Below, in pieces: positions 8,757 through 63,292 of a DNA stretch of 64,000 bases; the first letter of the stretch is position 1, and every line of letters begins with the position of its first letter. This stretch comes from Phoronis australis (Eukaryota; Animalia; Phoronida): the NCBI GenBank assembly GCA_002633005.1, contig NMRA01000522.1, positions 8,897-72,896 on the forward strand, read 5' to 3'. Position numbers and translations under genes: made by a program. The notes beneath the pieces were generated by a model. The model was given only the letters and a program-made list of their open reading frames with translations. It made no database searches and was not told the DNA's origin.

Positions 8757-8889
8757 ATGGCCGAGGAAACCATATATTTATGTAATTTCCGTGTCTCTGT
8801 TGATGGTGAATGGCTGTGCTTGCGCGAGTTGGCTGATATGCACATTGAAGTCCCTGCTATGGCTATTACGTCACCCATGTCTGAAGATG
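8757..8889 (+). CDS. RUFY: RUFY coding exon 1 ([28 protein letters not shown]...SED)
   Basis: ATG at 8757 with upstream in-frame TAA at 8736; donor G|GTAAGT, phase 1; motif resembles the recalled vertebrate RUFY3 N-terminus ([22 protein letters not shown]). Confidence 0.9.
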
Positions 8890-14800: not shown

Positions 14801-17800
14801 CTATTACCTTTCCACCTCATTAGCTCAGATCTACATCAATACAAAGGGTGTGTTGAATAAATAAAAGTTGTCTGGGGATTAGGGAATCAGGAGCATTGAC
14901 CAGTGTAAGGGAGAAATTCTCCAAATGAACTTATGAGGCAGCAGGAAATTGTGCTAAATTTTTCATGTATGAACTTGTGATGCAGCAGGAAATTGTGCTA
15001 AATTTTTCATGTAGTTTGGAAATTTGATAATTATGCTTGAGTCACAGTTCATTAATGACTATAAAGCAGTCTAAGTATTTCAACATTATTTACCTCAAAA
15101 TGGTATCACTGCATGAGTATTCAATTACTAATAGTGGTTAAAGTAATAATTTTAAAAAAGTGGTCTGAATATCTAGTTTAATTAATTAGTCAGTTGTTGC
15201 TCCATACTAATTGCTTTTAGTTGATTGCTTGGTGGATGTTTTACTTTATCAAGAGTCGCCTTCAAATTACCCTCAACTTTCCTCTCCCTCAGTACCAACA
15301 ATGTTGTATAGTGGGTGAGGTATTGTCATCAAATGGTTAACCATTTTTATATACTGGGTATGTGCTGTCAGTCATCCCCGATTGTCTGGTTGTTACTGGG
15401 CAGAATTCGACGTACGTTCATGAAATCATGCACAGATGTTCCTTTCATGGATGGGACAGCATGAGCCAACTTTCGGACGGATTCAACTACCGGTGTGTCC
15501 CATAGTGGCAATTATAGTTTTTTACGCTTACCTCTATCTTCAAAGGGCCTCAACATATTTTCATAAAATTTGGCATATAGGCATCTATTAGTGAGGTGAC
15601 GCTATCCTCCCGACTGAGGTGACACTATCCTCCCGACTGAGGTGACGCTATCCTCCCGTTTTCGGATGGATTCGACGTAGTTTGCCCCACCTAGTGGCTA
15701 TTTTTGCTGTTTTTGATTCTGTTTTTTGGCATGCACCCCTCTATCAACCAAACCGCTCTAAGAATGATTGTGAAAATTGGCATGTATGTTCTTACTATGA
15801 AGAGGACGGCTGAAGATTGTTTTCCAACGATTTCGACTACTATGGCACCTCCTAGTGGCAGTTTTGTTTTTTTACGCCCATGACTATCTCTCAAACTGTT
15901 GGCAGGATCTTTACTAAATTTTGCAAGTGTGTTTATATGATATTGACAATGTATGACGGCGACTTTCGGACGGATCTGGCAACCGGTGTGTCCCTTAGTG
16001 GCAATTTTAGTTTTTTACGTTTTCCTCTGTATCTTCAAAGGTCCTCAACGTATTTTCATAAAATTTGGCATATAGGCATCTGTTAGTGAGATGATGCTTT
16101 ATCCCATACGCATTGAATTAGTCGAGTGCAATACGGTTTGATCATCCAACCTTCCGAAAATAGTTTATAGTAATACAATTGCAGCAGTGTAAATAACACT
16201 CAACATGCAATCAGGTCCCAACCGTAATATCTAAAACAGGACTGTTAATTGCCGTATTCGCGCCCATAAGCGTCCCCCACGCGTTTTCAGACTTTGCTAA
16301 AATAAGCACTCAGTACATGCGAAAAATGCCTTACCTACAGCTCTAAACTTCTACAGTAACGTCTTCAATTTATCAATTAGATCCTACAGTCCTGAAAAAA
16401 TCATTGTGCGCGGAATTCGTAGACCACGAGCCTCGCTGCTGCTATGTCAGTATTTAGCCGTGACTATACACTTCAAACTTCCGCCGTGCCGCTTCAAAAA
16501 GAACGCAAGTTTTGCTGATCTTGCAAAGGATGTGTCCTATTATGGTCTCGCCTTTCAGAACAGATGCAGCATACTTGTCAAAGGGCTTGTGTTGTGTCTT
16601 TCCGTACAGGAATGCAAATCTCTTTGTACACGTGAAAACCACGAATTGAAGACTAATAAAAACGTGACGTTTGTTGGGTTAAAAGCATGTGGCTGCATTC
16701 AAGAATCTGTCATTGAAGATTAGTCTTCGGGAATTATCTATTCATGAAACAGGTTGCATAGCATTGGCAAGAAATAGATACTGGCACTTACCGTATTCGC
16801 CTCAATAACAGCCCAGGGCGCTTAGAAAAGTTCGGTTCAGGGGGGGTGCTTATTATAACCCAAGGCTGTTGAAACCCGGTCTCCGAAACTGGTGAAATCG
16901 GAAGCTAAGATTCATCAAATTTACGCTCTGTGACGTATATGTAATTTATGAAAGACTTTCAACAAAACTGTGGTGCATTGCTATCAACATTTGCTGCTAA
17001 ATTACGATCATTTTACAGAAAATTGTGCTGAAATCCCAGGGCGAAAACTCGCCGACTGACTGCCTTGAAATCGCCGTCTTCGATATGGCGATTTCAATGC
17101 TTGAATAAAAATGGTTTCGACTCAAGCAAATTACCTGAAATCCTCATTAAGTTTTATAAGTAGCGTCTCTAAGATTTTTTAAGTTCCCTTGGAGTCTGGA
17201 TTAACGGCANNNNNNNNNNNNNNNAGTTTAAGTACAAATCTGTGCAGCATCGTGCCATCTACATGTATGATCGGCAACACGGCGAGAAAAATGTCTGGAC
17301 GAACAAACATGTTGTTGTCACGTGATGTTTGTTTTGAAGTTCGTCTGCGAATAAGCGAGCGCGTGCGTGTCACCAGAGTTCATTTGCCAAAGCAGAGACC
17401 GTCTTTTGGCCAGAGGCACGCAATCTAACTAGCTAGATGTGTCTAAAGAAATTTTCACAGGCAGTAGGCCTAAACCAGAGCATGTTTCATTCAGCACTTG
17501 CCGGTCTCGTGCTAAAAACTTTCGACATTTGTCTCGGTAAGGCCCATATTAGTCGCCGTGTAGCTGGATGCGTACGTAACTATCTGACAGTTATTTTTCG
17601 GTGTAAGGGTGTGTAAGCATTCACTGTCAGTGGTCATTTTATCGGATATTTGGCTTATAAACACCAATTATGGTTAATCAAACAATTCATGTGCTTTTAA
17701 CACTGGCCAAGATTTTTATTAGTCTTCGATTCGCGGTTTTCACGTGTAGGTCTACAAAGAAATTTGGATTCCTGTTGAAAGCTGGATTAATATCAACAAA

Positions 17801-35800: not shown

Positions 35801-38800
35801 CCAGGACCAGAGGCGATGGGAGTTTTCAGTGTTTTTAGGGATCATATCTAGAGAACCAATGGAAAGAATTCAATGAAACTTGGTACACACAGAGGTATGT
35901 GACAACAATGCACAGGCTCCAGTTGATTTTTTTGAGCAGATTGATCACTACAGCTCCTCATACTGGTCATTTTGTTCTCAACAAGGGACTTTTTTATCAG
36001 TAGTTTTGGGGAGATGAGTGTTTCCTGAAGATTTCTTACTAGAGAACTAATTGTTAGATTTTAATCAATCGTGACACAGAGACACGTTATTACAATTCAC
36101 CGGGAACCAGGTGATTTGAGACAGATTCAACCTTTATAGAATCCTCTTGTGGCCATTTTGGTCTTGACAAGATGTTTTTCACTCTTTTAGGAAAGTGGGC
36201 CAGGGTTGGGGCATTTTAGTATTTCTTTAGATGAGCTGTTCGGGGTGATATCTAGAGATCTGATTGGCGAATTTCAGTGAAACAGTGACATGCAATTATG
36301 ATGTTCCATCACAAGTCAATTGTGGGATGAGTTGGACCTCTTTAGTACCACACAGTGGCTTTTTTGGTCTTGACATTGGGCTTTTTTGGTCTTGACATTG
36401 GGCTTTTTTGGTCTTGACATTGGGCTTTTTAGTATTGTTGGGAAGACGAGTGTTTCTGGTGATATCTTGAAAAGGGATTGACGGATTTCACTGGAGCTAG
36501 TTGATTTTCAGGAGGATTTGACTACTGCAGCACCCCCTGGTGGCAGTTCTATTTTGCATGTGATGGCATCTATCAGTTTTGAACATATTCCAGTCATTGC
36601 TCTGCCTATTTTCTGTCTATCTTTGTGTCTGCCAGTAACCTCATGATTGTTCATTATGAAGTATACTAGACCTGATTTTTGGATACCCAGTGTCCCTTTG
36701 TGGCATGTTTTATTTCTATGTTGCAAATGCCATCAACTGTTTATTTATATTTTGATTTTATGTTAGTTTTAAATGGTTATGCACCAACACTTTTTTCAAT
36801 TTTGACTTGCAGCTCACCCTTGTGTTCAAATTGTCTCCTTTTACATTTCATGAACCTGATAAGCACCCCTAGAAACATACCGTTAGTGGTACACTGTGGG
36901 CGCATATCAATGCTTCAACTCTTTTGATTTTAAAAAAACTACCCAATGCAAAATGTAAGATGAATTGTTTACAAAATCAGGATAAACTCTTCCCAGTGTA
37001 TTGTAGTTTTTCATGATTATGACAATTTTCTACTAATTCAGGCAAAGGTTAACTCAAAAATTTATGTGTGTTCCAAAAGTACATTGCTTGGTGATATTTT
37101 TTGTCGAATGTGGTCTTGAGTTTTCCACAATCTCCAAATGTCAATCAAGAGTAATCGATGAAGCTCTAATGTCTTGCAAATTGGGATTCTATTTGACCAC
37201 AGGATGTTGAAAAGGAGCTACAGCTACAGATAAGTATGAAGGCTGAGATTGAGATGGCCATGAGACTACTTGAGAAAGATATCCATGAGAAGCAAGACTC
37301 TATTGTCTCACTACGTAAGCAGCTGGACGATGTAAAGAAGATCAATATTGAAATGTACCAGAAGTTACAGGTATACTGTGAGAGTTTGTTAGTAGATTAT
37401 AGCTAGAGGTGTAACTAATACACCTTTTGGCTGGAGCAACAGTCTGTTATTGTACTGCCTAAGGGGTTCTTACATGGTTAGCACATGTGTACCATTCTGC
37501 TCTGTTGGCTCTTCTTTTTTCACAGCCAGGTTGCCTACAAAACTTCAGCTGCTATTGAATTTCCTATGAAAGGGTTTATTTTATTGGTTGGAAGGTTCAT
37601 ATTTGCTATTTAACACCACAGAAACATTTCAGGTCTATAGTCCAATTGCTCTATTGTTATTTCAATTATTAAAAACATATTGTAGGATTTAAAACCCCTA
37701 CAAAAAATTATGTTATGAGAAAATCTACAAGGGGTGACATTTTCATAGGAGCTCCCAATAAATGTGTCCGTTTGAGGTGTGCTCTTTAAAAGCATGTGGT
37801 TTACCTTATTGACTCCTTAAAATATAGATACACTAATTCCCCAGTTGCATTATCCTGTTCAAAATATAGTGGGGTACCCTCAAGATTACCAGTTGTGAGA
37901 CAGTTGTGCATTTTAACTTTGTTCCATGTGGTAATTTTGAAATTTATTCTTCCATGTTTGCACAAAGATATTTCTGCTTCTGTATGATCAGTGCAGACAA
38001 ACAAGCTGAAGCCAATCTGGTAAGAGTACTACTACAACTTCAACTGATATTATATCACACTATATTAAACAATATGCCAAAACCTCTAATTTCAATTTTG
38101 TTTGTGATTGAAACACTGGAGAAACCTACAAATATACTTAATGTTATGCTTCATAGTAAAATATCCCGTTTTTTTCATGAATTGTAAAAATATTCTTCAT
38201 TCTCCATTAAACTCATTTAAAGTAGCCTACATACTGTCATGAATTATTGTGGCATTCCTGGATATTGTCATTAAAAAATCACCAAAACTTATTCTCACCT
38301 GCTTATTAGCATATGTACCTTAAATTTGCTTTGTTATCTAAACAGCCTACCTAATTCATCTTCAATTCATGTGTCGTATGTGAACTGGACATCTGGGTGA
38401 AAATGGGTCGTTTCCTGTTTAGTTGTCTAACACTTCTCTCCACTTAGCATGGTCAGCTTATAAGGGTAGTTATGGTCATCACCAAGTGGGAATCCATTTA
38501 AAGGAATATCATCTGTATTACTGTAAACTCGTGTGTCGATGACCATGCCCATGTAATTGTCCATCCCCGACTTTTGGTCAATTTTCGGTTTTAAGCACCC
38601 ACTGCTTGAGTAATCACCCATCCCCTACTTTGTGCAAATTTCCCCTAAGCATCCACTGCTTGAGTATTCTCCCGTCCCCTACTTTGTTCACATTTCCCCT
38701 AAACGCCCACCTTTCAGGTAATCCCCCATCCCCTACTTTGTTCACATTTCCCCTAAGCGCCCACCTCTCAGGTAATCGCCCATCCCCTACTTCGTTCACA

Positions 38801-41800
38801 TTTCCCCTAAGCGCCCACCTCTCAGGTAATCACTCATCCCCAACTTACTGCTTACAGAACTTGAGCTTGAACTCAGTGGCTTTGTTCACAGCTTCGCCTC
38901 AGACTCACACTTCCGTGTTTGCAGAAACACGGCGTGCTTATACCTGCGTACAATTGTTTCGAAAAGTGCGTTTTCAGCCAGAATTTGTTTAATAACTCAA
39001 GCGCTGCAAATACCTTTTTTTACACTAATCAACTTATCGTTTGTTAAATTAATATAGGCCTACTCCGTAGATTTTTATAGAAGTGGCGCTAGTCTACTAC
39101 GAGATTAGTCATTGTTCAGAGATTAAATGTGGACGCCCCCTTGTGATGAAATGGCATATTTTTTGCGACAAGCTCATAAATTGATATTCATAGCCTACCA
39201 GAATGTGCTCCCATTCGTGGAACCACAACAGTCTTGGGTCACGTGTTCCAAACACTCACCCCAGGAGATTTCTTTTAAAACGTACTGATTAAGTTAACGA
39301 TTTGTCACCCTGATTTTGGAAAAAAGACAATTCCCACTTACAGCTTTCTATTACCGCCCCGGTATTTTGGTTGTTTGGTGAAAGAAAAAACATGTTAAAA
39401 ATCCTTACAAGCAAAAACCCACTGGAGCATTCAGGAATGTCTTTTTAACAAACTAACTTGATGGCGACCGCGGAGCTGGTATTTCGCTTTTTTCTCTGCC
39501 CTCATCCTTGCATTGCGTCGGTAAACCCACGGTGAGAAATAATAATCTGGATCAGACTGTGAAGTTATTCGCACGTTGAAGTTGAAGGAAAACTTACATT
39601 TGAGGCCACAGGTAGGAAGGGACTGCGTGTGGATCTGCCACCTAGAGGAAGGCAAACCTTAAGATGCAAACGGTGTCAAAGTCCGTAATTGTGGCGGATG
39701 GGGGGGGACTGTTGGACACGTTCCGAGAGGACTGTGCAAATTATTTCATTCACGTAGTATGACAGAAACTCGTGCTGTGTTCTTGGGCAACACGGCGCCG
39801 CAAGACATGGGCGGGGTGGAACCATTAGCTAGACGCAGCTAACTTTATGAAGTTTCGTGTTCAAAGGGATTTTGTTCAAATTTCACACAACATCAAATAA
39901 TATGTTGACATTGACATGATATACATGTGGTTCTTTAGAGTTAGATCTTTATTTCTACACTGTTTGAAACTTGAAAGTTGATGCAAATTGTTTTATGTAA
40001 AACTGCATTCATGTTCGGATATTGTGCCCTGTGAATAGATGTTGAACAGTGTTACTGGTATTTGTATTTATGTAACGCGTCTTTCCTTTTTAGTGTACTT
40101 AATTGCCATAACAGTACATGGTGGTATTACGAACCTTAGGTCTAACAACCATGAGAAAACAGTGTTTAATGTAGGTATCCTTATTATGAAATAGAAATCA
40201 AAACAGTTACGCTCTATGTTATGGCATACGGGACTATGCAGTCATTGGAATTTTTACAGTGGGGCTTCGGAAAGCACCTGATAGAAGCCTACTTACGACG
40301 TCCTGTTCGTCACCAAGGTAGGATTGTCTAGGTGACAAATTTTCAAATTACCTCATCTGAATTTATTTTTTGTATCAGGCACCATTTTCAATGCTTATTC
40401 GAGTTCAGTAGACCAACAAGTTTTTAGTGTTTGGCGAGAACAGGAGAAAAACTTCAAGACATCGCCATGTATTTTCAGACGATGCACGTGATTTTGCTAG
40501 TTTTCTCCTGAGTTGACCGAGATTTGAATTGAACCCCCTCTTGTTGTAGTTGCTTTTGTAGAGCACGTGAGATTTATCTCGTGGGTCAACCCAGATTTAA
40601 ATTGAGCAATTATTCACACAACCCTCTCGTCGTATAATTGCAAACGGTTTGTGTCAGCCGGGAACGAATTGTTTGTGTTTTTAATCCAGTGCCAGATAAA
40701 CTAATCAGTGAATGGAAAGTTTATCGGGTTTAATACACAGGTGACATTAACAACGAGGAGACGGGAGTGTAAGAGTTCTAACCAAATACAGTCGTACGAA
40801 CAACACTAACAATACAATGGCGCAGGTAATGAAATATAGTCCCGTTCACTGATTTGAAATAGTACTTACTGATACGGTAAGTGGACAGTCATTCAAGCTT
40901 CATAAAGCTACTTGGTATGACATTTTGCAACGTCTTAATATTTTTGAAAACATCTGAGTTTTTAACAAAGTTCTCTTGAAACCATCCTTTCAAAGTGAAA
41001 ATCCTATTTCTGTTTGAGCCGTGAGAAACTTTGTGGTTGTCGGGCTCCGCTGATAAACTGAACTCAGGAGCTCCGTGCTCGAATGAAAGCCGAAAGCCCC
41101 GCGTGCTTGCCCAGTTCGGTTGAAACTTGGACGTAAGCGCCCACCTCTTGGGTAATCGCCCACTCCCCTGCCAAAAGTTTTCCCCAATTTAAGCGCCCAG
41201 GGCGTTAACCCACAAGTTTACGGTTTGTATCATAATTTGCATCAACACCAAGAGTATGATATTAAGCCTAGTATACTTATAAGAGTGGTTATGGTCATGG
41301 CCTAGTGGGAACCCACTTGAAGGATTATCACGTTTAGTGTCATAATTTGCATCAACACCAAGAGAATGATATTAAGCCTAGTATACTTATAAGAGTGGTT
41401 ATGGTCATGGCCTGGTGGGAACCCACTTGAAGGATTATCATGTTTAGTGTCATAATTTACATCAACACCAAGAGTATGATATTATAAGAGTGGTTATGGT
41501 CATGGCCTGGTGGGAACCCACTTGAAGGATTATCACGTTTAGTGTCATAATTTGCATCACACCAAGAGAATGATATTAAGCCTAGTATACTTATAAGAGT
41601 GGTTATGCCCATGGCCTGGTGGGAACCCACTTGAAGGATTATCACGTTTAGTGTCATAGTTTACATCAACACCAAGAGTACACTTCAGTGTACTGATTTT
41701 CAGGCGTTAATTTTCTTTAAGTTGAGCACTAGATCTAAAGATCTAACTTGAAAATGTGTTTGCTGTAAACCCCAGGCCTGTAACTGCACCAGGGTTGTTC

Positions 41801-44800
41801 AGAGCATGATTCCTATGGAGATAAAAATAAGTGGAAACTTACTAAGCATTGTACAGGGCTACTGACTAAGCATTGTACAGGGCTACTGACTAAGCATTGT
41901 ACAGGGCTACTGACTAAGCATTGTACAGGGCTACTGACTAAGCATTGTACAGGGCTACTGACTAAGCATTGTACAGGGCTACTGACTAAGCATTGTACAG
42001 AGCTACTGACTAAGCATTGTACAGGGCTACTGACTAAGCATTGTACAGGGCTTAACTGCCTGTAACCATAGGAGAGTGTAATCAAAAGTTGACTATTCAG
42101 TATTTCTTGTATGCAGCCAAGTGAGAAGGTGGAAAGCATGCCTTGTTTTCTGACAGATAATTAAAAAATACCATGTCACAGCACACTCAGTTCTCAGAAA
42201 TCCAAGCCTGTCTCAAAATCTTGTTCAGTCTAGGGACAGGTTTAAAAGGTCAACTTGGCAAAAACTATTTTATTTGTATAAATATTTGGTGCCTTCCAAA
42301 CATAAAATTTATAACGTTTTTCCCAAATACAATACCTTTGGTTCATTTGTTATATTTATTTTGTGGAATTGGTACGTCTACCACCCTCACTACTCATCTG
42401 ACTGTGCTTTATTTACAATATGATGTAAACAGACTCGAGTCAGAATTGTTTGGCAAAAATCAGCAGAACAAATGCACAAACATTTTTTTGTTTATTTTCT
42501 CCTTAGGTAAGAGCTGATTGGGAAAGTTGTCATAATGCCCACAATTTATCCCCATTTTCACGTTCAATTACAGAAACAAAAAAATTTGAAAATAGATGTG
42601 GTAGACTGTGGCCCTTCAAGCCCTTTCGCAGTTCCAGCTGACCCACTTTTTCATTTTCATATGACAACCAAGTTTTAATCAAACCCGTCCCTGGGGTTTG
42701 TGGAGGCCAGGTCGCACTTCCACAAGTTGTTGCTAAGCTAAGCGTTGGGCCCTACAGTACCAAACATGTTTGCAGGTGTTCTGGCAATATATCTATGAAT
42801 TTTACACTGTAATTCAGATATTTTTATGACTTTTTATTGTTGATCCACTAAAAGTAATCAAGCGTAATCAGGTAAACATCGGAACCAACGTTTGAAAATT
42901 ACTTTCTTAAAATAGACGCCTTTGGTGTATGAACCTCATTTGCTTTTTTGCCGTGGCAACCATTAGATTACAAAAACAAGAAATTGAGCAGTTCGTAGTG
43001 TGATGTTTCTACGTTTCCTTGAGTCGTCAAGCTACGTGAGAGGTTACATCCAGTGATTGCCTTGGTTGTGGCACTCAGTCGACTTGGTTTATGGTGTTGA
43101 TCATTGCATGCGAATATGAACAGCGTTGACGTTTGTATTCAGTAGAAATGGTTTGCTCTAAGGCTTATGGAAAATCCAGGCATGCGTTGGCAATAACGGA
43201 CCTGCAACTGCCTTAGTTGGGACATTTATAAAACTGATGCCTGGCTCTGCCCCTGTTAATACTGTTGTGTAGTTGTGAAGTATTCAAATTCACGATAACA
43301 TGCCAGTGCCTCTCTATGAGTTTTGCTGTAACTTTATTGCAATAGAAAAGTATTCTCGAACAACATCAATCAGTTTATTCGAATCTAATCATAATTAAAA
43401 ATTAGCAGCCACTAATCAAGCATTGCCTTGCACCTAATTCCTTTTAGAAGTAATTAATAAGTTGTTAGTGTAAATTAGAAAAGAAATCATTAGACAATCA
43501 TTAAAATCCGATTCAGGCTAATAACTAGTCATTTACTCTTTGAGAGTATAATGCTGAAATTGTTGAGACTTGCAATAAATACACCACCTGTTCAATTAGC
43601 TCCATTTGTACATTAGACATCAAAAGTTAAGTTCCATTTGCTGTGGACGTAACATGACTTGCCTTTTACCACAAAGAATTTAAAGGAGGAAATGTTGTAA
43701 TTGGTGCAGTAACTTTGTCATTTAATAGCTTTTTCTTTGCTTAACTTTCTGAAACAATCTGGAGATGATTGACAAAGTAAACAGTTCAACAATTAGAGTA
43801 ATTGTTTATGCAACCTTTCGTTTGCATTGTATTAAAAGTGAAAAGTTTTAACAAGCTCTCTGGTGGTCACGTAACATTCATAAATGCATACATGATGTGT
43901 CATCTTAATTTTCTAACTTCGCAGAAACAGATTCCTCTGAGCACATTGCCACATGAACTACATGTGATTTGCAGATTACTACATAAACTACATGTAATCT
44001 GCAGATTGCCACATAAACTATATGTGATTTGTAGATTACTACATAAACTACATGTAATCTGTAGATTGCCACATAAACTACATGTGATCTGCAGATTACT
44101 ACATAAACTACATGTAATCTGCAGATTGCCACATAAACTACATGTAATCTGCAGATTGCCACATAAACTACATGTAATCTGTAGATTGCCACATAAACTA
44201 CATGTAATCTGTAGATTGCCACATAAACTTTATGTGATCTGCAGATTACTACATAAACTACATGTGATCTGCAGATTACTACATAAACTACATGTAATCT
44301 GTAGATTGCCACATAAACTATATGTGATCTGCAGATTACTACATAAACTACATGTAATCTGTAGATTGCCACATAAACTATATGTGATCTGCAGATTACT
44401 ACATAAACTACATGTAATCTGTAGATTGCCACATAAACTACATGTGATCTGCGAAGACTCTCACGTCATTTCCAACCAATGCACACCAACTCCTGCCTTT
44501 ATTTTTTATCTTTGATGGTATCCCTTGATCAATTTTCCTGGGCGAAGTCACTCGACAACTTGGAAGCCATCTCCTGAGAACAATTAATGAACATAGCTCA
44601 ATTATTTTGTCATTTTAGTTTTGTGAGTATGTACTTTGTTTTGTTGCCAACCATATTTATGGATATTTGCTGATTTTTGTGGTTGCAACCCAATATGAAA
44701 TTACATTTTGTGACCATGAACAATGTGGTAGATATCACAAACCAAAAATCAGATGTTTATATAAAAATTTGATATTTCACACCTGCTATATACCTGCTTT

Positions 44801-47800
44801 TTGTCAGTAACACTAGGTGGAGGTACTACTTGATACACGGAGTATATGGCTTTTGACATATGTGATGGGGAGCCACATCAACACTTCTCATTGAGCTTGG
44901 TCTTAGTCAGTAAAGAATGGTCAATTCTTCTCAAGCTGAGAAATTGCGTATAATATAAGAAGGGAACAAGTTGAGACTAAGTTTATAATTATACAGAAAA
45001 CTTTCCAACAAAAAGTTGTTTACCGGTACCTGTATAAAGTAGGTGCGAAGCAGTTTTACACGGTGACAGTTGTCATGGAGCAGCTGATTGCGCGTGTGTG
45101 TAAACACTTCTCATACAGAGCAAGTTGACACCGCTGCGACCATTTTGACACCAATTTCAGAGGTAGAGCGAGTTGCACTCGATCAGTTAGAGTTTCAACT
45201 ACACGACTGTCTAAACACAATTGGGGCAGGGTGGAAGGGGATCATCTTTCAATGCATTTGTGCAATTGCGTATATATGGGTGATTTACTGACAATCCACA
45301 TGGTTTGGACGTTTGCTAATTGTTAATGCGAGCATGTGCAGACAGTCTTCGTGTAAACGACTCATGCTGATCCAGTTTGCCATCTAATGTCCTGTAAATC
45401 CTACTTAAGTGGAATAACTCACATTGCGACAACTGTTCCCATTGTAAAAACAACTTTACAAACAATTACTTGATTGTCTGGTCTTGGTCAATTAAATAGA
45501 AGTACACTTACAAAATATGAGGTGTCAGTTTGGCCTTGGTGATTTAAATGAAAACACACTTACAAACAATGACTTGTCTGTTTGCTCTTGGTTATTTGAA
45601 AACCTGTCTTGGCCTCTTCTGGCACATCCTGAAATTTCCAGCCTTTGTAATTGAAACTGAAACAAACAAAGTGAGTAGTTTGTTGAACAGATAGCATTTT
45701 GTTTTTCTATGTTGTTATAAAGTTGCATTCAATGCACTTTCGCTATAATTATTTACGAACTTGGTGTCATTTTTAGTAAAGGTTTTGCTATTTCTGCCAA
45801 AAGATCTATGGATAGCTCTTTCATTGCAGTGATATATGTGGCATGGTGGCAATACAGTGAGAGAGCACATGAAAACACTACAAACTAAACTTCTAGTTAC
45901 GATATTTATATTTCCTTTTTCTTCGGAACACCTTTTCCTACCATGAGAAGAGGGTCAAAGCTTATGGAAGAACACATAAAATGACATAATAGGAACCACA
46001 AGCATTGAAGTGCACAGTTGTGACCACAAGTGAATTGCCTTTACTAACTTATAAAAACATTTCACTGTTATTTTTGGTAGATTTTTTTAATTTGAAAAAC
46101 GTTAATTTCACTCCAGGTTTTTGCTACGTTTGTTGGATTATAGTGCTACATCAAATTTTACAATGATGTCATACACAGACTTGTTGATAACGTCCTAAAT
46201 AACATTTAAGCCGTTAAAACATAAAACTGACATTGTGTAAATAAATGAAATTACTTAATGCTTGGCAAATGTGGTGGATGTTGTTTGCAAGTTTACAGCA
46301 GCTGAGCAGATTGTCTACAGTTTACAGCAGCTCAGCAGATTGTCTACGCTGCATTTTTGGTTATTTCAAATAACAAAACAAGCTTTGTTCACATATGTGT
46401 GAGGAGTGACAAGTTATTTCATAGCACATATGCTGTTTGGGGAAAAACTTCCACATGATTTCACATTGTTTGAAAGATTTCATAGCGTCTACCGGATTGG
46501 TGGTCCGGTGTTAAGAATTTGAAAGTGTTTTGGGTTTGCCACGAGGCCATGTTTAATTCGTCAAGTCACATTTGCTGTCATCCACATATGTTCCACTTGT
46601 TTGTATGTTAATTTACGTTGGAGTGTAGCAAAGAAACTTAATATTTGTGAATTGTTGTGTAAGTGTATGTTTTCTCTTTATTTTGTTTGTTCAAAATCAT
46701 CTCAAGCTCATTGTGTAGTTGGCTACATACTTTTACCCACTAGGGGTCAGTTTTCATTGTTCCTTCTCCTTATATCCTCGTGTATCGCTAGTGTCCCAAG
46801 GACTTTTTAAAACCATCTTTCATGCTGAAACCATGCTTGGCTGTATTATCTTGATCAACATGTTGGAAATATCAAAAATTGATTTGTAAAATTATGTGTA
46901 TTGGAGAATCCAAAAGTGATGTAGCTTGAGAACAATTCAATGCATCATTGATAACCTGGGTTTGTAGCTTCAAATTGATGTTTAACATGTTAAAACAATG
47001 TATTGTGGCTACACTTAGAGAATATTGAGAAAATCTGTGGGCAAAAATGAGGATGTCCAAAGCATTTGGAAAAATTTTTGAAGAGCAATTCTGAGAATAA
47101 TTTTTGTTTGAAATTGATGAAATTTTAAAGTTATCAGTTAAGAACATAATATCACCTGCACAAAATTAATAAGCAGTCTCCTCATGGATGTCCTCATCAC
47201 TCTACATTGTTGTTGTGCCTGAGTTCGTTTGCCTGGGGGATGCCACCCTTTGCTGAACTGCACCTGTTGAGCCTCAGTGACCAGGAGGATGACCAGCAAA
47301 GTGGCTAAGATCTTGATGGTGTCTGGGTACTGCATTTGTACAGAGGCCTAGGAAGAGTTTATAGGGAATAGTGTAGAAATTGATCAACTCGCTGTTTTGT
47401 ACGAGACAAAATGGTTTCAGTGATATCCTATTATTTTTCAAACAGTAGTAGAAGTAGTATGGTAAATGTTCTCCAGTTTGGAAAGTCTTGGCACACTGAA
47501 ATTCTAGCTAAAATTGAGTTTTCGTGATTCTGAAGATTGGAATGTGAACGATTTGGCATTCATCATATATTACAAATATTGGACAATGTCTTTTGGGTGA
47601 ACAGAGTCTGTTAATGTACTTTATTTTTGGCTGCTTTTAAAGCCATTGAAAATAGCCGCTTTGAATTTGAGAAGCCCAACATTGCCATTCTAAAATTCGG
47701 TATAAGTTCCGACCTCGAGCAAAATAATTTTTTAACAATCCCAAACTGGATGATTTCTGCCATAATAATGTTGGTAATAACGTTAGCAAGAGAATTTTTT

Positions 47801-50800
47801 TTCTTAAAAACCATAAAAGTTCAATCTTTTCATGAAAAAGCAGAAATTTTGAAAACACTTCCTCATAGTGTTTTGGAAAAGAATACAAGCATGTGTGAGA
47901 TATGATATTCTGAAGTTACTAAGTTTGAACATTTTTCTGGGGTCCAACGTAATCTCTAAGACCAAAAGTTTTGTGAAACAGCCCTGTAGTTACTTCCTCT
48001 AAGGTTCTGAACATCTTTAGAAAGTTCGTATAATTAGTTCAAAGAACCTCTGCTGAGTGCTCACATATTGACAAAGTGTCACATATCTTACACAACCTGG
48101 GTGATAGATACTAATTAGACAGATAATATGGCCATTCTTAGTCTCATTAGTACCAGATTCTCTGTATGGACTTCTGCAGATGTTGGTGTTGGCGTACTTT
48201 TACGTTTTAATTGAAAAACATTGTAACCATCTCTGTCAATAGTGGCGAATCATTTATTATTTTTAACGATAAATTCTATGAAATGAAAAGTTGAATCACT
48301 GGAATATATTGTCTGAGGAAGAAGTTTTAACCATGTGGTTTTATCTCCAATTTGTAGTGCTATCTCAGGAAGTTTTAATTATCTGGTATTATCTCGGTTA
48401 CCCATTTTCTTGGTTGCCCAGACATAGTGTTTATCCGGTTTTTCTATGTGCAGCAGCACCACATACCCATGGTAAAGACCCCCTTCAGGTTGAACCTTAT
48501 AGTTTTAACTAGAACTTCCTGTTCTCTGCTTCAAAATGACATTGAATATGCTTTAGTGAGAGTTTATTGCTTTTACCTCCAAACAAACAAAGCTATTGTG
48601 AAGTTTTTAACTTAAAAACAACCAATTATTTGGTTGTTTGTTGTTCAATCCGCACTTTCTTACTTGATTTAGGCTTTGATTAATTAAAAGGAGCCATCTG
48701 TTTGTGCTGGGATAGCTCATGTATGGGAAATCCCTGCTGAAGAGGCCTGAGGGTTCTACACTATTTTTGTCAAAGGAGGGCAGATGAGAAATTAGGATAC
48801 TCAACTTCTTAAGGATTTGACATTATAAAAGGTACCTTCTTAGAGGAAACTTCTGTGTCAAAAGCAAAGTGCTTGTTTGTCAGTACCCCCAAGCACTTTC
48901 TCCGGGCATTGTAAAATTTTTGCAATTATGATAGATTATAGTGTAAAGTATGAAAAACGTGATATAGTAGGCAAAACTCATCAATTATGAATTTTTGGAT
49001 AAAGTAAAATGATGTGAAAAGTGTGTGCTCCTTAAATGATAACTTAATGATGACTACTGAGAGGTGACTGCTTGCTCATCGGATTACTTGCTTCCATTCA
49101 AGTCTATTCTAACTGCATCACAACTCTTCCTCTTCCACTAACTCTTCTTTGACAGTGACACCATATTGTGTGATTGGTTTCTTGTCACAACCGTTAGAGC
49201 TTGCCTATCTGAGTGAAGTTATTGTTTCTCATTGTTAAGGAGTTGCTCAACTCAGAAAATGGTTCATTGTTATGGTAACTTTAGCGCGAAATTTCAAATT
49301 AGTTTGTCATGAAATAGACTTGGTCATTTTCAAACCTACAGGTTTAAAGCACATAGCTGATATAAATCTTGGGGAAAGTCTTGCTGGTTATGGAGTGATC
49401 TGAACCGTTCCATTGAATATGAAGTAACTGTAGATACTTAAGTGTGACAAAGTTTAGTTTACAGTTAATACCGTCATTCTAAAGTCAATGCTTTGTATTT
49501 GGTTCTTGGTTGATAGTACTTTTAAAACAACACTGGGTGACTTTTCATACGATATTGCAAAAGGCTTTAGTTTTAACTGTACTGCGGTATCTCCAGCATT
49601 TTTGTAATATCCCAGTTCCTTCATTTTCACCTGCTGCCAATCTTTTTTAATTAGTCTTCATGTTTCCAGAACCCCTCTCACCTGTTGTGACAATATCATA
49701 TAGTATTCTGATGAAGTTACTTCAGTTTGGAACGCAATAGAGTGGACCAGTGAAATTGTATTTTGTAGCATATTTTCAACAAAAATAAGCATTTATAAAA
49801 CTTAAACTTATGAAAGACCCTAGAAAAATGTTCAAATTTGGCTAAATTTGGAACATCATATTTCAGAAATGGGAGCTCAGATTCATATGAAACCTGCAGA
49901 TATACTTCATGCTCAGTTCTCCAAAACGCATCAAGGGCTATGAAGAACGGGACTTTTATGATTTTCATGAAAAGTCGATTAGGTTGCTTAAAACGAAAAC
50001 GGAAGGATATTTTAGAATACTGTATCAACGTTTTTGTTATCTTGAACATACATACGAAATAAAATTTGATCATGTTATTTATTCTGTTCTTTTGCTATCA
50101 ATGTGCCTTTCTTTTTTGCTAAAATTTATTTATAAGACATGATCACGTGACCAATTACTGGCGGGATGGTAAAAAGTAAAAAATCAAATTGTACAGGCTT
50201 TCTACATTAAGAAAATATGTGCCGAGTTAAAATCTCTGGTTATTTGCCTAAATACACAGACTTTTTACTTATGCCTTGCATAACTTTAACTTGCGCAGTT
50301 TACATTCTACAGTTAGCAACTAAAGTAGGATGGAATGCTGTGCATTTTCAACAATGGAATGAGCTTTGAAAAGTGAAAAATAGCACTGTTGGCCATTATT
50401 TTTATTCAATTAAATCAGTTTTTGGCCACAATAATATCAAAAACCGGACGATCGCCGCACAAATAAAAAAGTTCATGTTCAATTCAACGTTTCGTCTTTT
50501 CATTAGACATCATCAGGATCATATTTAAATTTGAAGACACTTCACCATATACGTAAAAATCAACTCACCTTCTTGCTTCTTAGTAATACCTGTACAAGTG
50601 AAAAATTCAGTCAAAACTGTTTGATGTGTTATGTGTACCACCTTTTATTAGGAGACTAGCCAATCACAAGCGTTGTCGTTGTGTGTTGGCGGATACAACT
50701 CTGCTTATACATTTCTCGTAGTCTGTAATTACCCTAATGTGGACCTAGTAATAATTGCCCTGATTTCAGGTGTATTTTTGTCTATTTAAAATTGGGGTGA

Positions 50801-53800
50801 CACCATCAAAGGGTGTGATGACTGTGCTCCTTAGAAGTAAATAACACCCGCTGTCACATCCGTTAATTAGCAAAAATTATAGCATAGAATTTGGTTTTGA
50901 TTTAAGTTAGATTAGTTGACTTTTGTACGTCAAAGCATTAGCGTTGTATGAATTAATTAATGTGTTATACTTTATACTCGTTTTTACTATTTTTGATCAT
51001 TTGCATAAAATATTTCACAGATTTCTTTTTTCCTGAAAACAGAGCTTCAGGACAACCATGTATTATTGATATGTTTGACGTCAAATTATTAAATGCATTT
51101 AGCATATTGCACTTAACTTAATTAGTATGATAACTGTATATATTATCGGTAGTTGTGACAAGTTGACTTAAAACAAAGAAATACTGATGCAACAGTGCAG
51201 TACCTCTCATTAAATGTTCAAATATCACATCTCAGAAATGGCTAATTTGATTCATGCGAAACTTTCAAATACTCCGCTATGTGCGCTGTTCTCAAAATGT
51301 TTTTAGGAATTGTTAAAATCTGACTTTTATGATTTTTAAACTCAGAAGTTGCATAAAAGGAAAATAACAGTTTAGCGTTTTTTCAATTCAGATCTTTGGA
51401 CAAATATGACTGCCATGGCAACCCTGAAGGCTGTTTTAGTTTCCGACGAGACATTACTTGTGCATCACTTTTTTGGCAATTTTTATGAAACGTAGTACAG
51501 AGGAACACAGTGGGAATGCACCAGCACCAGCACCAGCACCAGCACCAGTTGATTTTCAAACAAATTTGGTTGCGGTGGCACCCCTGTTGGTCCTCTTAGT
51601 TTTTGATAAGAAATTGTGGTTTTATTTTTGGAAAGAAATCTGGACGAAGTTTGCCAACTTGATGTAGAGGTATGTGGCAAGAATATGCCATCGCCAGTCA
51701 ATTTTCAGGGTGATCTGACTTCCTGGTACCTCCTGTTGGCTGTTTTACTTTTTGATGACAAATTCATTTTCTACTTCATTTTTATATTCTTTTAGTTACA
51801 TATTGTTTTAATGATTTGATAGATTTCGTTGAGTCTTGACACAATGGTTTATGGCTAGGATGCACTAACACCTGATTTTTGGACAATTTTACAATTGTAT
51901 CACTGGTTGGCGGATTTGTTTTTGATGACAACATATTGCTTGTTGGTCAAGTACCGTCAAAAGAACTGAACAAATTTATGGAAAAATTGAACATCTGAGC
52001 CCTTGGGCGCTAGCTGCAAAATTATACGTCTACGAATGGGACTTACATGATTCTAACCTGATAGAGTTTGTTATAATGTGTGGCTGTTGGATTTACACTA
52101 TGACCTCATAGATACTCATAGTCTATGATGGCCTATGGTGCTAGTTTGGTTTCAACTAGAGTGTTGTAATAAAGTGTCTTTGATACTGAGTTTCCTCAGG
52201 TCTTATATTTGTGTCTCATTTCAGACGTGTGAAAGCTCACTAAAGCATAAAACAGAACTGGTTACCAAACTAGAGCAGAAGACTGTAGAAATGGCTTCCA
52301 TGTTGAAAAATGTGGAAGAAAAGTAAGTTTTTCCTTTCAACTTTCTATGTTTTTGTTTTCTTAAAAAGGGTTTGTTTCATTGAACCTGCTTATTGAGGTT
52401 CACACTACATTTGGATGTTTTATAACCTCTGTAAGCCTTCGAGTTAGTCTATTTAAATTGGTTTACTCTAAAACTTTGAGTGTGCTGTTAACGAGATATG
52501 GGTGCTTAAGTGTGAAATGTAAGAAACTAGTATAGAATGTTAATACTTGCATAGGCACTTGTCCTGGCATGGTGATGTAAATTGGAATTACACAGGGCCA
52601 AAGTTAAAAGAATAGGAGACTTTTCAAATTGGCGCTCTCTAGACTAATGAGAGCACAGATGTGATTTCGGATTGATCCTGATTGATTTGGTGGATAGAAA
52701 TTCAATTACTACATACTCAGTGGTTCATTAATTTAAAAACAGATGAATAAATTCCACTGTCAGTCCCTCCCATTGGTTGATTAGTTTAAGTTCAGTAATT
52801 TAATGTTGCTTTTTGACATTGGCTGTGATGAAATTCTAGCATTTTATCAGCCGCAACCACTGACTTTGTCGTACGTGGATACGTCTTTGCAGTGGGAAAT
52901 AGATGGAACGTGATGTCCTTGTTCATCCGGTGACATTTCAAAAGATTATTCATAAGACATTTAGTAAATCCCTCTTCACAGCAATGGAAAACATTATAAT
53001 GGCAGGAAAGATGTGAAAATGCTTATTATACCAGTAGGTTGAAATCTCCTGTCGGCATTACATTGGATTTGTAGGTTGTACTGAACACTTGTTCACCAAA
53101 GACCTGATGTTAACTGGCGAGTTAGTGAATTTCAATATGACACGGTTATTTCAAAAGTCAGCTATTAGTTACAACTTATTTATCATGGCATGTTGCCAAC
53201 ACGCAAGTGTTCGCTAACCAACATGTGTGTAAGTCACTAAGTGACTGGAGAAAATTGAAAAAATACCTATCAAAATTCTAGGACTGACCTGCCAAATAAA
53301 TATCAAAGTCGTTGAAGATGCAAATCATTGAATTCTAAGCCTAAACCTCCTTTGTTCACAGTTTGCAAGGAATTAAAACATCTTATTACCATGTGTTACA
53401 AGGCAGTAGCTGTCATATTGATGTACTGTGATGGTGCAATGTATGTCACAAGTAAACACATTGATTTCATGAAACTTCATATTCAGTAATCAGCTGTGCA
53501 TGAAACAAAAGTCTCCAAATACATTAAATTTGTGTTGATTTCCACTAGAGGGCGTATCCTATCATTCTTTGTACGTGTACTTGTCATATGTGGATTGGGT
53601 CGTCCCAAATAGGTCATCTAGAAACATGGCAGCCACAAAAACATCATGTGACCTCTCCATGCTTGCTTGCTACTTAATTCTGAACATGTCACTACCTAGG
53701 CTGGGGCTTGGCTACTGAAACTGTAAGAAAAGGTAGATTCTTCATAAAATTAAATTTATTGCAGCACATAATGTTAGACCATGGCTGACAATGGTCTTGG

Positions 53801-56800
53801 TAAGTGCAAGCTAAACAACGCGACTACTTTTAAATAAATGTATTTCAGAAACTGCTAATAAGATGTTTCTGGATTCGTCTGTCCGACTAAGAATTGATCC
53901 AGTTTGCATTTAGAAAGCAGACTTTTACCAGTTTGCAATAATTGGTGAAAAACACTGCCGAGCTTAAATCAAACATTTTCAAAAGTAGGGAATGGGTACA
54001 TGCATTAGGCACTATATCCCATTGCCCAACTATGAATGCTTCTTAACAGTTGAAATTACAATAGCCACGACACACAATGCCTAGACTTTTATGTATAATA
54101 GCCACAGGAGTAATGGATTTTGAGAACCAGTTTAGAGTACTTAAAACTACCATTTATTTTGTTTTGACAAGTGACAACATTGTCAGCATCAGTGCTCTGT
54201 TATAGCACTGTACATCACGAATGTGAATACAAATATCCCAAAAAATGGAAATTGAAGAAAAGTGACTGAAAGTTTTTTATCTCCCCAGACATGAGTATGG
54301 CGTATGAACGTGCCCAGTGCCAGAGTGTCATGTCCACCAACACAAGAGTTTCTTGTACGAAGTTTTGCCTTATCAATGCTTCTCTGGTGTCTCACAGGAA
54401 TGTGATAAAAAACACTGCATAGTCAAATAATTACCATGTTGTCACAACCACGGTCCATCACAAGTGTAATGCCTTGCCGCTTCTTATTATACCAACAATA
54501 ACTTACGACTTTTCACACTAAACACAATGGAGGATGACTAGAACTGTGATTGGTTGTCCCGATTTTACGTAGTATGTTTTGACCAATAAATGCTCTTACC
54601 TCAAGATCAGCTAATTATCATGTCTTCAGATAGTGTGTGTGGGTGTTCTTATTTGACAGCTGATCGACTGGTGGAGATGTTTTTTGTGTTTTGACATGAA
54701 ATTGGCGATTCCAAATACTTTGATTAATTCACATTCAATTGATAAAACAGTTTGTCAACATGCAGGACTCTTGTAAGTGACTATTATCTGTTATAACTGG
54801 CTTCTTTTGTTTGATGTGTTAAATGAGATAGCCATCAGTGATAACTGCAGCCTATTGAGGACAAATTCAGGCCGTCAAGTTTTCTATTTTTTTGAGGGAC
54901 TCATACCTGACATTTAGTTCATTGGGCTTAAAACGATTGATGCTGCTGGGTTAGGTGAACTTTTTCTTTGAGCTTCAAACATGTTACAACTGGGGGCATC
55001 TAGTTGTGTTTTTACACTCTTGAAAATCGAAGGTACAAAGAGCAATTACCTATACGACTAAACCCCCCACCTCTCATGCACATTGCTATACATGTGCAGA
55101 CAGCACTTCATGGTGGTGAAACTACTTGGAATAATTGGAAGTATTTTAATAACAATAAAACTTAAGTTAATTAAAGTGATAAATGGATAAGGAACTGGTC
55201 ATCAGTGAGAGTACATGAAGAGAGCTGGAGAAAGTGATAAATGGATGAGGAACTTGTCATTGGTGAGAGTACGTGAAGAGAGCTGGAGAAACTATTGAAG
55301 CGTAAGCCTGAGATGAAGAAATCGTCCTATATCGCGCTCTTTCTTCATTGTTTCCGTACAGTGTTAGGTTGAACAAAGCAAAATGCAAATTTCATCAGAA
55401 ACACTTGAAAACAGTCTTAAGTGGTAGCTTTAGACATGCCATTTAAACAACTTTTTGAATTTTTGAAATCAGTTGGACGGTTCTCAAGTTAAAAATTTAG
55501 AGCCTCAATAATGGCCTTTTTTCATCAAACAACTCTGTCCCAGAAATTCAAGTCACAGAAAGTGGCAAGTTTAGACAACTATATTTGGAAATCCATAGCT
55601 TACTGTGTTCCTAAAACGAAATGGGAGCCCTTTACAGGTAGGTTAACATGGCATCGACTTCAAACCACAAACTATATTTTGTATAAACAAGAACAAAAGC
55701 AATTGAAAAATTCACCATCGACTTGTGACAGGACATTTTTACCTGAAGCTAAGCTGAACCAGGGATGTTTTGAAAAAAGAGCAACTTATTGCTTTGAAAA
55801 GGCAGAACACTTCAAGAATTACTGTGGTTTAGTAAAAATATTTCTTTTGTTCCAAAAGATTTTAAAATAATTCTTAAAAAATGAAATTTGCATAAAAATG
55901 AATTCAGGAAGAGCAAAAACAAGAAATCTAGTCTTTCTGTCTGAGTATTTTGTCATTTATTTGAAAACCTGTGAGGTTATGTGAATTAGTCTTTTTCCCC
56001 AAGTTAAAAGATCAAATGAATGTTTTTACAATCTTAAGTTGCATACCATGTGATGAAAAATAATTTTAGTTGAACAAAATTAAATTGAACCCTAAAATAG
56101 AATTTGAAAAATATTCTGTACTATCTTAATGAAAATATTTCACCAATCTGGGCCATGTTTTGTAACTTAGAGAAGTTTTGACTGGTTCTGTTTAATACAT
56201 TTGATCAATAAGGTTTGAGTTCAATTTGAACCCTGGAAAGGTCAACATGGTTCTTGAAAAATGACTGAGTTTACCTTTTTAGAAGTGTTCCTAAATCGAA
56301 ATGGTGAGATAAAGTGAAAAAAATGATGAGGAATGGATAAGGACATGATTGGTGATTACAACGTTGAGTGTACGCTTTCAGAATTTTTCCAGGTGAGAAA
56401 GTGACAATGCAGTAAATTAATAATAAAAAGCAAAATTTTTTAGTAAACAGTTTGGTATAAATATCATTAAAATCAGTTCTGTAACGGCCATTTAGCAGCT
56501 GAAAGTTTGACCCCTACTGAAAGTCACAAGAATTTACCGGTGAGTGAAAAGTGCGTGAAGTGCTCGCATTACTTCAAAATATTTGTTAATGCCCCCATTT
56601 GTTGCAATGGATATCAATAGAAAGAAGAAAGTTCAGATATTTCACTGGCATACTTTTCATTTTCCACCACTTAGTATGCTAACAGACATGAGCTTGTGAA
56701 AGTTATAAAAAATGGCAAAATTTTGGTCTTGCTGAATTTTGGCCATATTGGTTTGCTCACCCTAACTGTAGCTGCAGAGTGGCTTGCCACTTCACTGCCG

Positions 56801-60596: not shown

Positions 60597-63292
60597 TTTT
60601 TATTATGTGCCCACATATCTTTATTGTCGTCGTCTCTGTTGAGGCGTCCGCAGCTGTGTCTCCTAAACACCTATGAAGCTGACTATGGGTGATGACGAAT
60701 TTCAGACTTAGGCCACTACAGGTGTGCCCCCTAGTGGCAATTTTATTAAATTTGGCAGTTAGGCATTTATTAGTAAGATGACACTATCCTCCCATTTTCT
60801 GATAAATTTGAGGTATTTTGCTCCACCTAGTGGCCATTTTTACAGTTTTCGAGTCTTTATTAAATTTAGCAAATGTATTTACCGTATTCGCCCTAAGAAG
60901 TGCCCAGGGCGTTTCGAAAGATTCGCTTCAGGAAGGGGGGGCTTACTATAGCCCAAAGTGGTTGAAACCTGGTCTCCAAAACAGTTGAAATCGTATAAAG
61001 CTAGATTTCATCAAATTTACGCTCTGTGACGCATTTGTAACCTATGACAGAGTTTCTACAAAATTGCAGTGCATTGCTATCAAACTTTGTTGTTAAATTA
61101 CGAGCATTTTTCAGAAAATCCTAGTGCAAAAACTAGCCGACTGATGCGTAGCTGCCTTGCGATCGCCGATAGGTCAACTTGAATTCTTGAGTAAAAATAT
61201 AGTTTCGACTCAGCAAATTACCTGAAGTCCTTAAGTTTTCGAAATAGCGTCCCTAACATTTTTAAGTTCCTGTGGAGTCGGGAATAACTGCCATATTAAG
61301 TCCAAATCTGCGCTAGATCATACTCCGCAACACAAGAAAAATCTCTAGACGAATACTCATGTTGTTGTCACATGAAGTTTGTTTTGAAGTTTGTATGCGT
61401 GTGTGAGTGAGCGAGCGTGTGCATGTCATCAGAGCTCATTTGCCAGAGTAAACACGTTGTAGCGATCTAGGTGTGCATTGTCACTAAGGAAACTGACACA
61501 AACAGTAAAGCAGAAAGTGTTTTATATAGCACTTGTTGATCTCATCTTCTAAAAAACGTTCGAGAATTGAGGGGTGTAAGAGTGCAGAAGTGGGTCATTT
61601 TGACTTTAAGAACAACAATTACAATTAATTCAATAATTCCTCCTAAAAATAACGCAAACGTTCCTTACAGTATTAGAAACTTTCGGAAATAAGTGCCGGT
61701 ATTTATTTCTTGCCGACGCTATGCTACCCGTTTCATGAATAGATATTTCCCGAAAACGAATCTTCGATGACAGGTACTTGTATGTAGCACGCGCTTCCTG
61801 GCCATTTGCTTTTAACAAAGGTCACGTTTTTATTAGTCTTTGATTTGCGGTTTTCACGTATACAAAGAAATTTGGATTCCTGTTGTGGGAGAAGATCTAT
61901 ACGGGAAAGATACAATACAATCCCGTTGACAAGTATGCTGCGTCTGTTCTGATAGGCCAGACCATAATAGGACACATCCTTTGCAAGATCAGCAAAACTT
62001 TTGCGTTCTATTTGAAATTTGAAGTGTATAGTCATGGCTAAATACCGACATAGCGGCGAGGCTCGTGGTCTACAAATTTCACGCACAATGATTTTTTCAG
62101 GACCGTCGGATTTTATTGATATATTGAAGATGTTACTGTAGAATTTTAGAACTGTAGGTAAGGCATTTTTCGCTTGTACACTGCGTTCATGGACTGGGTG
62201 CTTATTTTGGCAAAGTCTGGAAATGCTTGGGGGCTTTTATAGGGGCATATGTGGTATTTGAAGTTGACAACTGACGGCTACGACTTTCAGACTGATCGGA
62301 CTGCTGGTGTTCCCCCTAGTGGCAATTTTATTTTTTATGTTCACCTCTTTATCTTCAAAGGTCTTCAATTGATTTCCATAAAATTTGGCAGTTAGGCATC
62401 TAATAGTGAGGTGACGTTATCCATTCATTTTTGGATTGATTCAAGGTATTTTGTGCCACCTAGTGGCCATTTCTATTGTTTTTGAGTCTGTTTTTTGGCC
62501 TCTGTCCCCTCTGTTATCCAAACCACTCTAAGGATGATTATGGAAATTGTCACGTATGTTCCTACTGTGCAGAGGATGATTTTCTGACGAACTCGACTAC
62601 TGTGGCGCCTCCTAGTGTCAGTTTTCTTTTACTGGCTGTTTCTCTCAAACTCTCTGCAGGATCTTTATTAAATTGAGCAAATGTATTTATATGAAGTTCA
62701 CAGCGGACAACAATGACTTTCAGATGAATCCGACAAATGCTGTGCCCCCTGTTGGCAATTTAAGTTTTCCGTTTTCCTTTTGTCTCTAATTCAAGCTCCT
62801 TGAACGGATTTTTATGAAATTTTGATAAATAGCTTTCTATTGAAACAATGGCATGTTCCTGTTTTCGGATGGATTTGACGTATTTTGTGCCATCTAGTGG
62901 TAATTTTTACTGTTTTGTAGTCTCTTTTTTGCGCCTGCCCCTCTATCAACCAAATGACTCTAAGTATGATTGTGAAAATTCGCAGATATACTCTTACTAT
63001 GAAGAGGACGGTTGACGATGATTTTCCGACAACTTCAAGTATTGTGGTGCATCCTAGTGGCAATTTCATTTTTTTCCGTTTCTTCTTTTTTTCTTAAGTT
63101 TCTTGACAGATTTTCATGATATTTGGTAAAAAGCTTTCTATTAAAGAAGCGACGAGAGGTACCGGTTTTAGGATAGATTTGACTTATTTTGCTCCACCTA
63201 GTGGCCATTTCTGTGATACAAATAATCACCCCTAGAAGCACACTGTTTGTGGTGCCTTCGTGGGTGCATTACAACGCTCTGCATTGGTCTTT
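60597..63292 (+). mobile_element. HINE/pearl-like element interrupted by a family-B MITE
   Basis: 5' TTATGTGCCCAC, CCTAGTGGC cores, 3' GTGGGTGCATTACAACGCTCTGCATTGG and T-run. Confidence 0.78.
60882..62254. mobile_element. TA-flanked MITE family B nested in HINE
   Basis: TA|CCGTATTCGCC...GGCATATGTGG|TA; removing it rejoins AAATGTATTTA-TTTGAAGTT, matching the uninterrupted core at ~62679 (AAATGTATTTATATGAAGTT). Confidence 0.82.

Follow-up and report, generated by a model that had tools for sequence, protein, structure and literature searches.

A spliced neuropeptide gene, probably of corazonin type, lies antisense within an intron of RUFY in Phoronis australis

A spliced antisense gene within RUFY intron 10

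We analysed a stretch of 64,000 nucleotides of the phoronid Phoronis australis (contig NMRA01000522.1 of assembly GCA_002633005.1; hereafter the window), which holds two genes on opposite strands. The larger one, on the plus strand, encodes RUFY, a trafficking protein named for its RUN and FYVE domains. The smaller one lies on the minus strand inside RUFY intron 10 and encodes a neuropeptide precursor that belongs to the GnRH (gonadotropin-releasing hormone)/corazonin superfamily. This nested antisense arrangement had been proposed in a preliminary description of the locus, and junction reads, strand and mapping of the intron now bear it out. The features, in window positions, are as follows (UTR, untranslated region; pGlu, pyroglutamate).

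8757-59663, plus strand: RUFY, the host gene, in which tblastn placed 13 coding exons
37371-52224, plus strand: RUFY intron 10, the host intron, 14,854 nt, GT..AG, phase 0 (read ends and gap in tblastn matches)
50664-50643, minus strand: putative core promoter, with ATTGG (reversed CCAAT box) at 50664 and a TATA-like TAATAAAA at 50650-50643 (motifs)
~50606-50569, minus strand: exon 1, non-coding, 5' limit approximate, without upstream ATG (junction reads, donor GTGAGT)
47347-47156, minus strand: exon 2 (residues 1-60), with 12 nt of 5' UTR, the ATG, the predicted signal peptide, the 12-mer with G-K-R, and the first part of the associated peptide
47335, minus strand: start codon ATG (sequence)
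47335-47270, minus strand: predicted signal peptide, residues 1-22, ending in T-E-A (hydropathy and the (-3,-1) rule)
47269-47234, minus strand: residues 23-34, the corazonin-type 12-mer in its predicted mature form with pGlu and amide (sequence)
47233-47225, minus strand: Gly35 (amide donor) and Lys36-Arg37 (convertase site) (sequence)
45656-45564, minus strand: exon 3, residues 61-91, with Cys71 (sequence and junction reads)
44573-44460, minus strand: exon 4, residues 92-105, stop codon at 44531-44529, 3' UTR to at least 44460

Transcription of the nested gene was followed in four P. australis RNA runs: three raw runs from one study (X1, X2 and X3), each sampled to ~18-19% with reads placed on the stretch 44460-52400, and a contig set from another study (X4). 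Both coding junctions that had been predicted were found in all three raw runs and in one contig. Junction 47156/45656 was crossed by 8, 29 and 37 reads in X1, X2 and X3, and junction 45564/44573 by 10, 24 and 28, and the X4 contig (470 nt) carries both. A third junction, 47347/50569 (6, 13 and 21 reads, with 37-39 letters on the exon-1 side), joins exon 2 to the non-coding first exon; loose read ends at exon 1 match exon 2, and none point further upstream. Of the gene extent given earlier, the coding exons thus stand, but the span of 2.8 kb does not: with the missed exon 1 at ~50606-50569, the gene covers more than 6 kb. The putative promoter motifs, whose function is suggested by their sequence, lie ~40 nt upstream of the read 5' ends, and the gene would be transcribed from its own promoter near 50650.

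First mates lie on the plus strand over the nested exons (depths, for example, of 12.2, 28 and 38.3, versus 0, 0.02 and 1.33 on the minus strand) and on the minus strand over RUFY exon 11. The RNAs of the two genes are therefore of opposite sense, and both genes are expressed in the same three samples. The nested gene is genuine, spliced, expressed and antisense to RUFY.

The 3' end is less simple than had been described. An AATAAA is indeed present at 44503, but transcripts run past 44460, and the motif is therefore not established as the poly(A) signal: reads overran the ends of the stretch 44460-52400 (7, 12 and 14 reads), whose right end was without depth, the X4 contig extends 41 letters further than 44460, and the read ends listed formed no pile-up. 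A 30-nt tandem array of 17 copies (43941-44452) starts 77 nt past the stop codon, and the 3' UTR appears to enter it; more AATAAA/ATTAAA motifs occur past the array, at 43726, 43379 and 43338. At the other end of the gene, dispersed repeats at 49760-50530, in its first intron, attract many divergent reads of both strands, and a strand-switch joint at 50478/50527 suggests an inverted-repeat element resembling a miniature inverted-repeat transposable element.

The host gene was recognized from a plus-strand exon at 22304 that matches RUFY proteins of brachiopods, molluscs, annelids and nemerteans with up to 88% identity. Mapping by tblastn with ten RUFY proteins placed its exons from 8757 to ~59663, with a gap at 37370-52225; the FYVE exons were not found within the window. 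In 10, 13 and 6 of the reads on exon 11, and likewise in contig X4, the loose 5' ends before 52222 equal the end of RUFY exon 10. Intron 10 is therefore removed in one piece, which makes the nesting of the small gene genuine; none of the nested exons overlaps a RUFY exon. Introns are numbered here from the ATG exon at 8757. That exon (8757-8894, plus strand) corresponds to one of the N-terminal classes, the one seen in the Tubulanus protein; the alternative N-terminus of other isoforms was not found in the window, and the intron number thus depends on the isoform. An open frame of 139 residues in RUFY intron 11 (56675-57094, plus strand) looks by eye like a transposase fragment and is without a Pfam match. 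Similar frames at 16301-16723 (plus strand) and 61733-62236 (minus strand), in opposite orientation and also without a Pfam match, are probably copies of one dispersed repeat.

The precursor and its published counterpart

The coding exons 47335-47156 (180 nt), 45656-45564 (93 nt) and 44573-44529 (45 nt) give 105 codons and a stop, and the coding introns are all phase 0 with GT..AG borders. The three exons, the precursor of about 105 residues and the two cysteines of the preliminary description thus hold in all coordinates. Residues 9-17 form a hydrophobic core (Kyte-Doolittle 3.28, 9-residue window), and T-E-A occupies residues 20-22, immediately before Gln23. As judged by hydropathy and the small-residue rule, a single copy of the peptide directly follows the predicted signal peptide. 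The cysteines are residues 44 and 71, and the phase-0 intron after residue 60 falls between them. The computed [M+H]+ of the predicted 12-mer is 1420.71, against 1292.65 for an 11-mer starting one residue later. A pattern combining the peptide with G-K/R-R has a single match in the window and none in 150 third-order Markov simulations, a rough control as the pattern was composed after the motif had been seen; a looser peptide pattern occurred 70 times in 150 simulated windows. Six FSxxW-type motifs are present in the window, only one of them with G-K/R, and no second paralog was found there.

The hormone precursor and its peptide are already known, having appeared in a public data set in 2021. 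Supplement file 1 of Thiel et al. 2021 (PMC8557429) contains a corazonin entry, 'CRZ_Phoronida_Phoronis_australis', that is identical by eye to the window precursor at 104 of 105 residues. The only difference is residue 80, Ser in the window and Leu both in the published entry and in the majority RNA allele. This change (G>A at 45598, S80L) was seen as Leu80 in 8/8, 28/29 and 20/38 reads of X1, X2 and X3 and in the X4 contig. Peptide, cleavage site and splice product are the same in the entry and in the window gene; the entry is a transcriptome protein, and no gene structure or genomic position was found with it. Across the four samples the amino-acid alleles T12I, T38S, R45T and S80L segregate, all in the signal and associated peptides, and none of the listed alleles falls in the mature peptide or G-K-R. 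An allele at 47202, at first read as loss of a cysteine, was rejected as such; the change is R45T.

The same supplement lists corazonin entries for two further species of the genus, which we compared, like the others, by eye. In P. ijimai the 12-mer and G-K-R are identical to those of the window, and in P. psammophila 2 of 12 peptide positions differ; in both, the two cysteines are kept and the signal and associated peptides have diverged. All three Phoronis entries share A|QQVQ, G-K-R and the two cysteines, and in each T-E-A or T-Q-A precedes the first Gln (PMC8557429). These entries do not bear out the earlier suggestion that the peptide may be a new variant or paralog: an identical peptide is catalogued, which removes the novelty and leaves the gene itself unaffected. 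Nor are its supposed oddities unusual. Val3 and the Pro-Pro end are common to all three Phoronis entries listed, the Lys of FSKGW (Lys7) recurs in the Lingula entry (PMC8557429) and in centipede corazonin (PMC5592718), and the latter also has Gln4 (PMC5592718, Table 4). A search of the main texts of papers for the motif FSKGW returned nothing on phoronids. As a hormone, the gene adds little, because precursor and peptide have been public since 2021; what is added here is the four-exon gene model, the start region, the host intron, the read support and the predicted mass.

From these features we infer the following course of processing. Signal peptidase would cut after Ala22 and Gln23 would cyclise to pGlu; a prohormone convertase would cleave after Lys36-Arg37, a carboxypeptidase would trim the basic residues, and an amidating enzyme would use Gly35 to amidate Pro34. 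The associated peptide set free would comprise residues 38-105, in which a bridge between Cys44 and Cys71 is probable; the oyster AKH (adipokinetic hormone) precursor has been described with a cystine bridge (PMC5024129). The 12-mer would then signal through one of the species' corazonin-type G-protein-coupled receptors. Knockout of CRZ1 in Platynereis delays maturation and reduces growth (PMC6969523), and by analogy the phoronid peptide probably links feeding state to growth and maturation.

The host intron in other animals

Among 67 metagenome loci of animal origin that carry RUFY exon 10, 34 contain the homologous intron in full, always short (137-2209 nt), whereas 4 are without the intron and 29 end before exon 11. 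A hydrophobic stretch with a W..G-K/R motif was found in none of the 34 enclosing loci, the window serving as a positive control. Weak motif matches in 2 of the 29 open loci were rejected as unrelated. The survey is biased, as short contigs enclose only short introns, many loci repeat the same animal, taxa were roughly assigned and 29 loci stop short of exon 11. In one locus (L014) exon 10 is identical to a protein of the annelid Paralvinella, and the intron measures 296 nt. The result counts against universal nesting. The position of RUFY intron 10 itself is kept across the 34 enclosing loci, arthropod-like ones included.

A collection of prokaryotic genomes contained nothing for the nested arrangement. 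In Lingula the accession numbers of RUFY (XP_013394068) and corazonin (XP_013384764) are ~9,300 apart and do not suggest adjacency of the two genes, but a second RUFY record has a later, non-comparable number. Adjacent accession numbers sought in other species were of no help. The open-access literature, supplements not covered, yielded no report of RUFY-corazonin or RUFY-GnRH nesting or synteny. We lean slightly towards a history in which the corazonin gene was already antisense inside RUFY intron 10 in the ancestor common to phoronids and annelids, several lineages having since moved it elsewhere.

With the peptide already known, what may be unreported is its gene's nested position alone, which other worms possibly share. 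If this history is true, the two genes would form an unreported nested pair of roughly Cambrian age and offer a positional test of orthology in lophotrochozoans, whose corazonin/GnRH peptides have repeatedly been renamed when judged on sequence alone. If phoronids and annelids both inherited the nesting, it could serve as a microsynteny marker by which corazonin precursors are told from GnRH/AKH ones with no need of a receptor assay, and would guide annotators to an easily missed gene within the host intron.

Corazonin type and its alternatives

The gene has the hallmarks of the GnRH/corazonin superfamily: Gln23, G-K-R at residues 35-37, a spliced mRNA with an open frame, and a phase-0 intron downstream of the peptide. 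An intron of this phase is described as shared by superfamily genes (PMC10321317; PMC5024129). A second corazonin isoform of Tubulanus (PMC8557429) diverges between the two cysteines in a way that resembles intron retention; the place is roughly that of the phase-0 intron that follows residue 60 here, a hint that the intron is conserved in nemerteans. Within the superfamily, we regard the precursor as very probably of corazonin type and its peptide as a likely ligand of a corazonin-type receptor. The 12-mer aligns by eye in register with lophotrochozoan corazonins (F5-S6, W9, P11) and has the 11-12 residues, F/Y5-S6 and W9 of protostome corazonins. It shares 7 of 12 positions with the octopus peptide and, in the comparison with centipede corazonin, 7 of 11 (PMC5592718, Tables 1 and 4). 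Directly behind the first Cys stands R-V, where three brachiopod corazonin entries have R/Q-V (PMC8557429). The Lineus orthologue has been detected by mass spectrometry as a pGlu, amidated 12-mer, and for P. australis the supplement lists two corazonin-type and four GnRH/AKH-type receptor sequences, as well as a separate GnRH-2-like precursor with an unrelated peptide (PMC8557429). The window peptide lacks the extended C-terminus that marks spiralian GnRH type 2, as in Platynereis GnRH2. Top feature matches in the ESM Atlas were GnRH (0.93), with corazonin (0.90) and AKH (0.89) clusters also present.

Several observations weigh against the corazonin assignment. Two exons scanned singly against Pfam matched AKH only, below threshold (E 0.025, 15.5 bits versus a cut-off of 22.9), and not corazonin. 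Val3-Gln4 departs from the aromatic-His of the other listed lophotrochozoan corazonins (PMC8557429, PMC5592718), and from the second Gln on the peptide equals Nasonia ACP (adipokinetic hormone/corazonin-related peptide) at 8 of 10 positions. A Platynereis peptide filed under GnRH/AKH by its sequence activated the corazonin receptor only (PMC6969523); ligand sequence is therefore not always predictive of receptor type. The literature yielded no mass spectrum of a phoronid peptide and no receptor assay, the mass spectrometry of Thiel et al. covered Lineus only (PMC8557429), and the three raw RNA runs all come from one study with the tissue not given.

The gene might instead be the 'missing' phoronid GnRH type 1/AKH-like paralog, its signal peptide being cut one residue later to yield an 11-mer that acts on GnRH/AKH-type receptors. 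Thiel et al. found no GnRH type 1 in phoronids (PMC8557429). Of the six AKH hallmarks set out by Li et al. 2016, the 11-mer, apart from its likeness to Nasonia ACP, would show four (pQ1, an aliphatic residue at 2, FS at 4-5, W8; PMC5024129). The sub-threshold AKH match, the best in Pfam, starts at residue 24, and intron data do not distinguish AKH from corazonin genes in protostomes (PMC5024129, PMC10321317). We nevertheless consider this reading unlikely. With cleavage behind Gln23, position -3 would be Glu and position -1 Gln, which the small-residue rule for signal cleavage sites disfavours. The T-E-A or T-Q-A before the first Gln in all three Phoronis entries also argues against the later cut, and the associated peptide begins as in brachiopod corazonin entries; moreover, the supplement has only this one corazonin entry for P. 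australis (PMC8557429). True AKHs have 8-10 residues and a W-amide, WG-amide or WGX-amide end (PMC5024129), whereas hallmarks i and vi (length and C-terminus) fail here with either cut, at 11 or 12 residues and a W-H-P-P end. Whether the AKH pattern of FS at 4-5 with W8 (PMC5024129) is present depends on the cut: it is absent from the 12-mer and appears only with cleavage after Gln23.

That the transcript acts mainly as an antisense RNA modulating RUFY transcription or splicing, with the peptide incidental, is suggested by its nesting on the opposite strand, but is very improbable: peptide and cleavage site are conserved in three Phoronis species while the remainder drifts (PMC8557429), nested and RUFY exons have no overlap, the samples that express the nested gene also splice RUFY intron 10 normally, and the homologous intron is short and empty in all 34 other enclosing loci. 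The tests made here gave no sign of RUFY regulation by the nested gene. Least credible of all is a chance motif or an assembly artefact without a functional gene. It could appeal to the word-based and phmmer searches of large protein collections, which returned no true relative: the exon-2 frame had no homologue candidate among proteins of 37-121 residues, and phmmer against 1.84 billion representatives found none either. Such searches are, however, weak for a fast-evolving query of 60 residues, and this reading is refuted by splicing at three junctions across four runs, by the strand specificity of the reads and by the published orthologous series. Two phmmer matches were rejected as repetitive unrelated proteins.

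As a probable corazonin-type gene, the phoronid gene joins those of octopus, oyster, Aplysia, Platynereis (CRZ1/GnRHL1), Lingula (XP_013384764.1) and Lineus, lophotrochozoan corazonins that were once named 'GnRH'. Like them, it encodes a predicted signal peptide, a predicted pGlu peptide within the range of 11-14 residues with F/Y5-S6 and W9, G-K-R and an associated peptide (PMC8557429, PMC5592718); the two cysteines are also present in brachiopod and nemertean corazonin entries (PMC8557429). Unlike them, it has Val3-Gln4 in place of aromatic-His, a Pro-Pro-amide end and two coding introns. Arthropod AKH and corazonin genes have a phase-0 intron in common, and ACP signalling has been reported as confined to arthropods (PMC5024129); the phoronid 12-mer exceeds the length of true AKH. 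In its genomic setting, the gene resembles other opposite-strand genes nested in introns, being likewise a small gene wholly within one large host intron and with its own spliced transcript. Opposite-strand nesting within introns is a common arrangement in animals.

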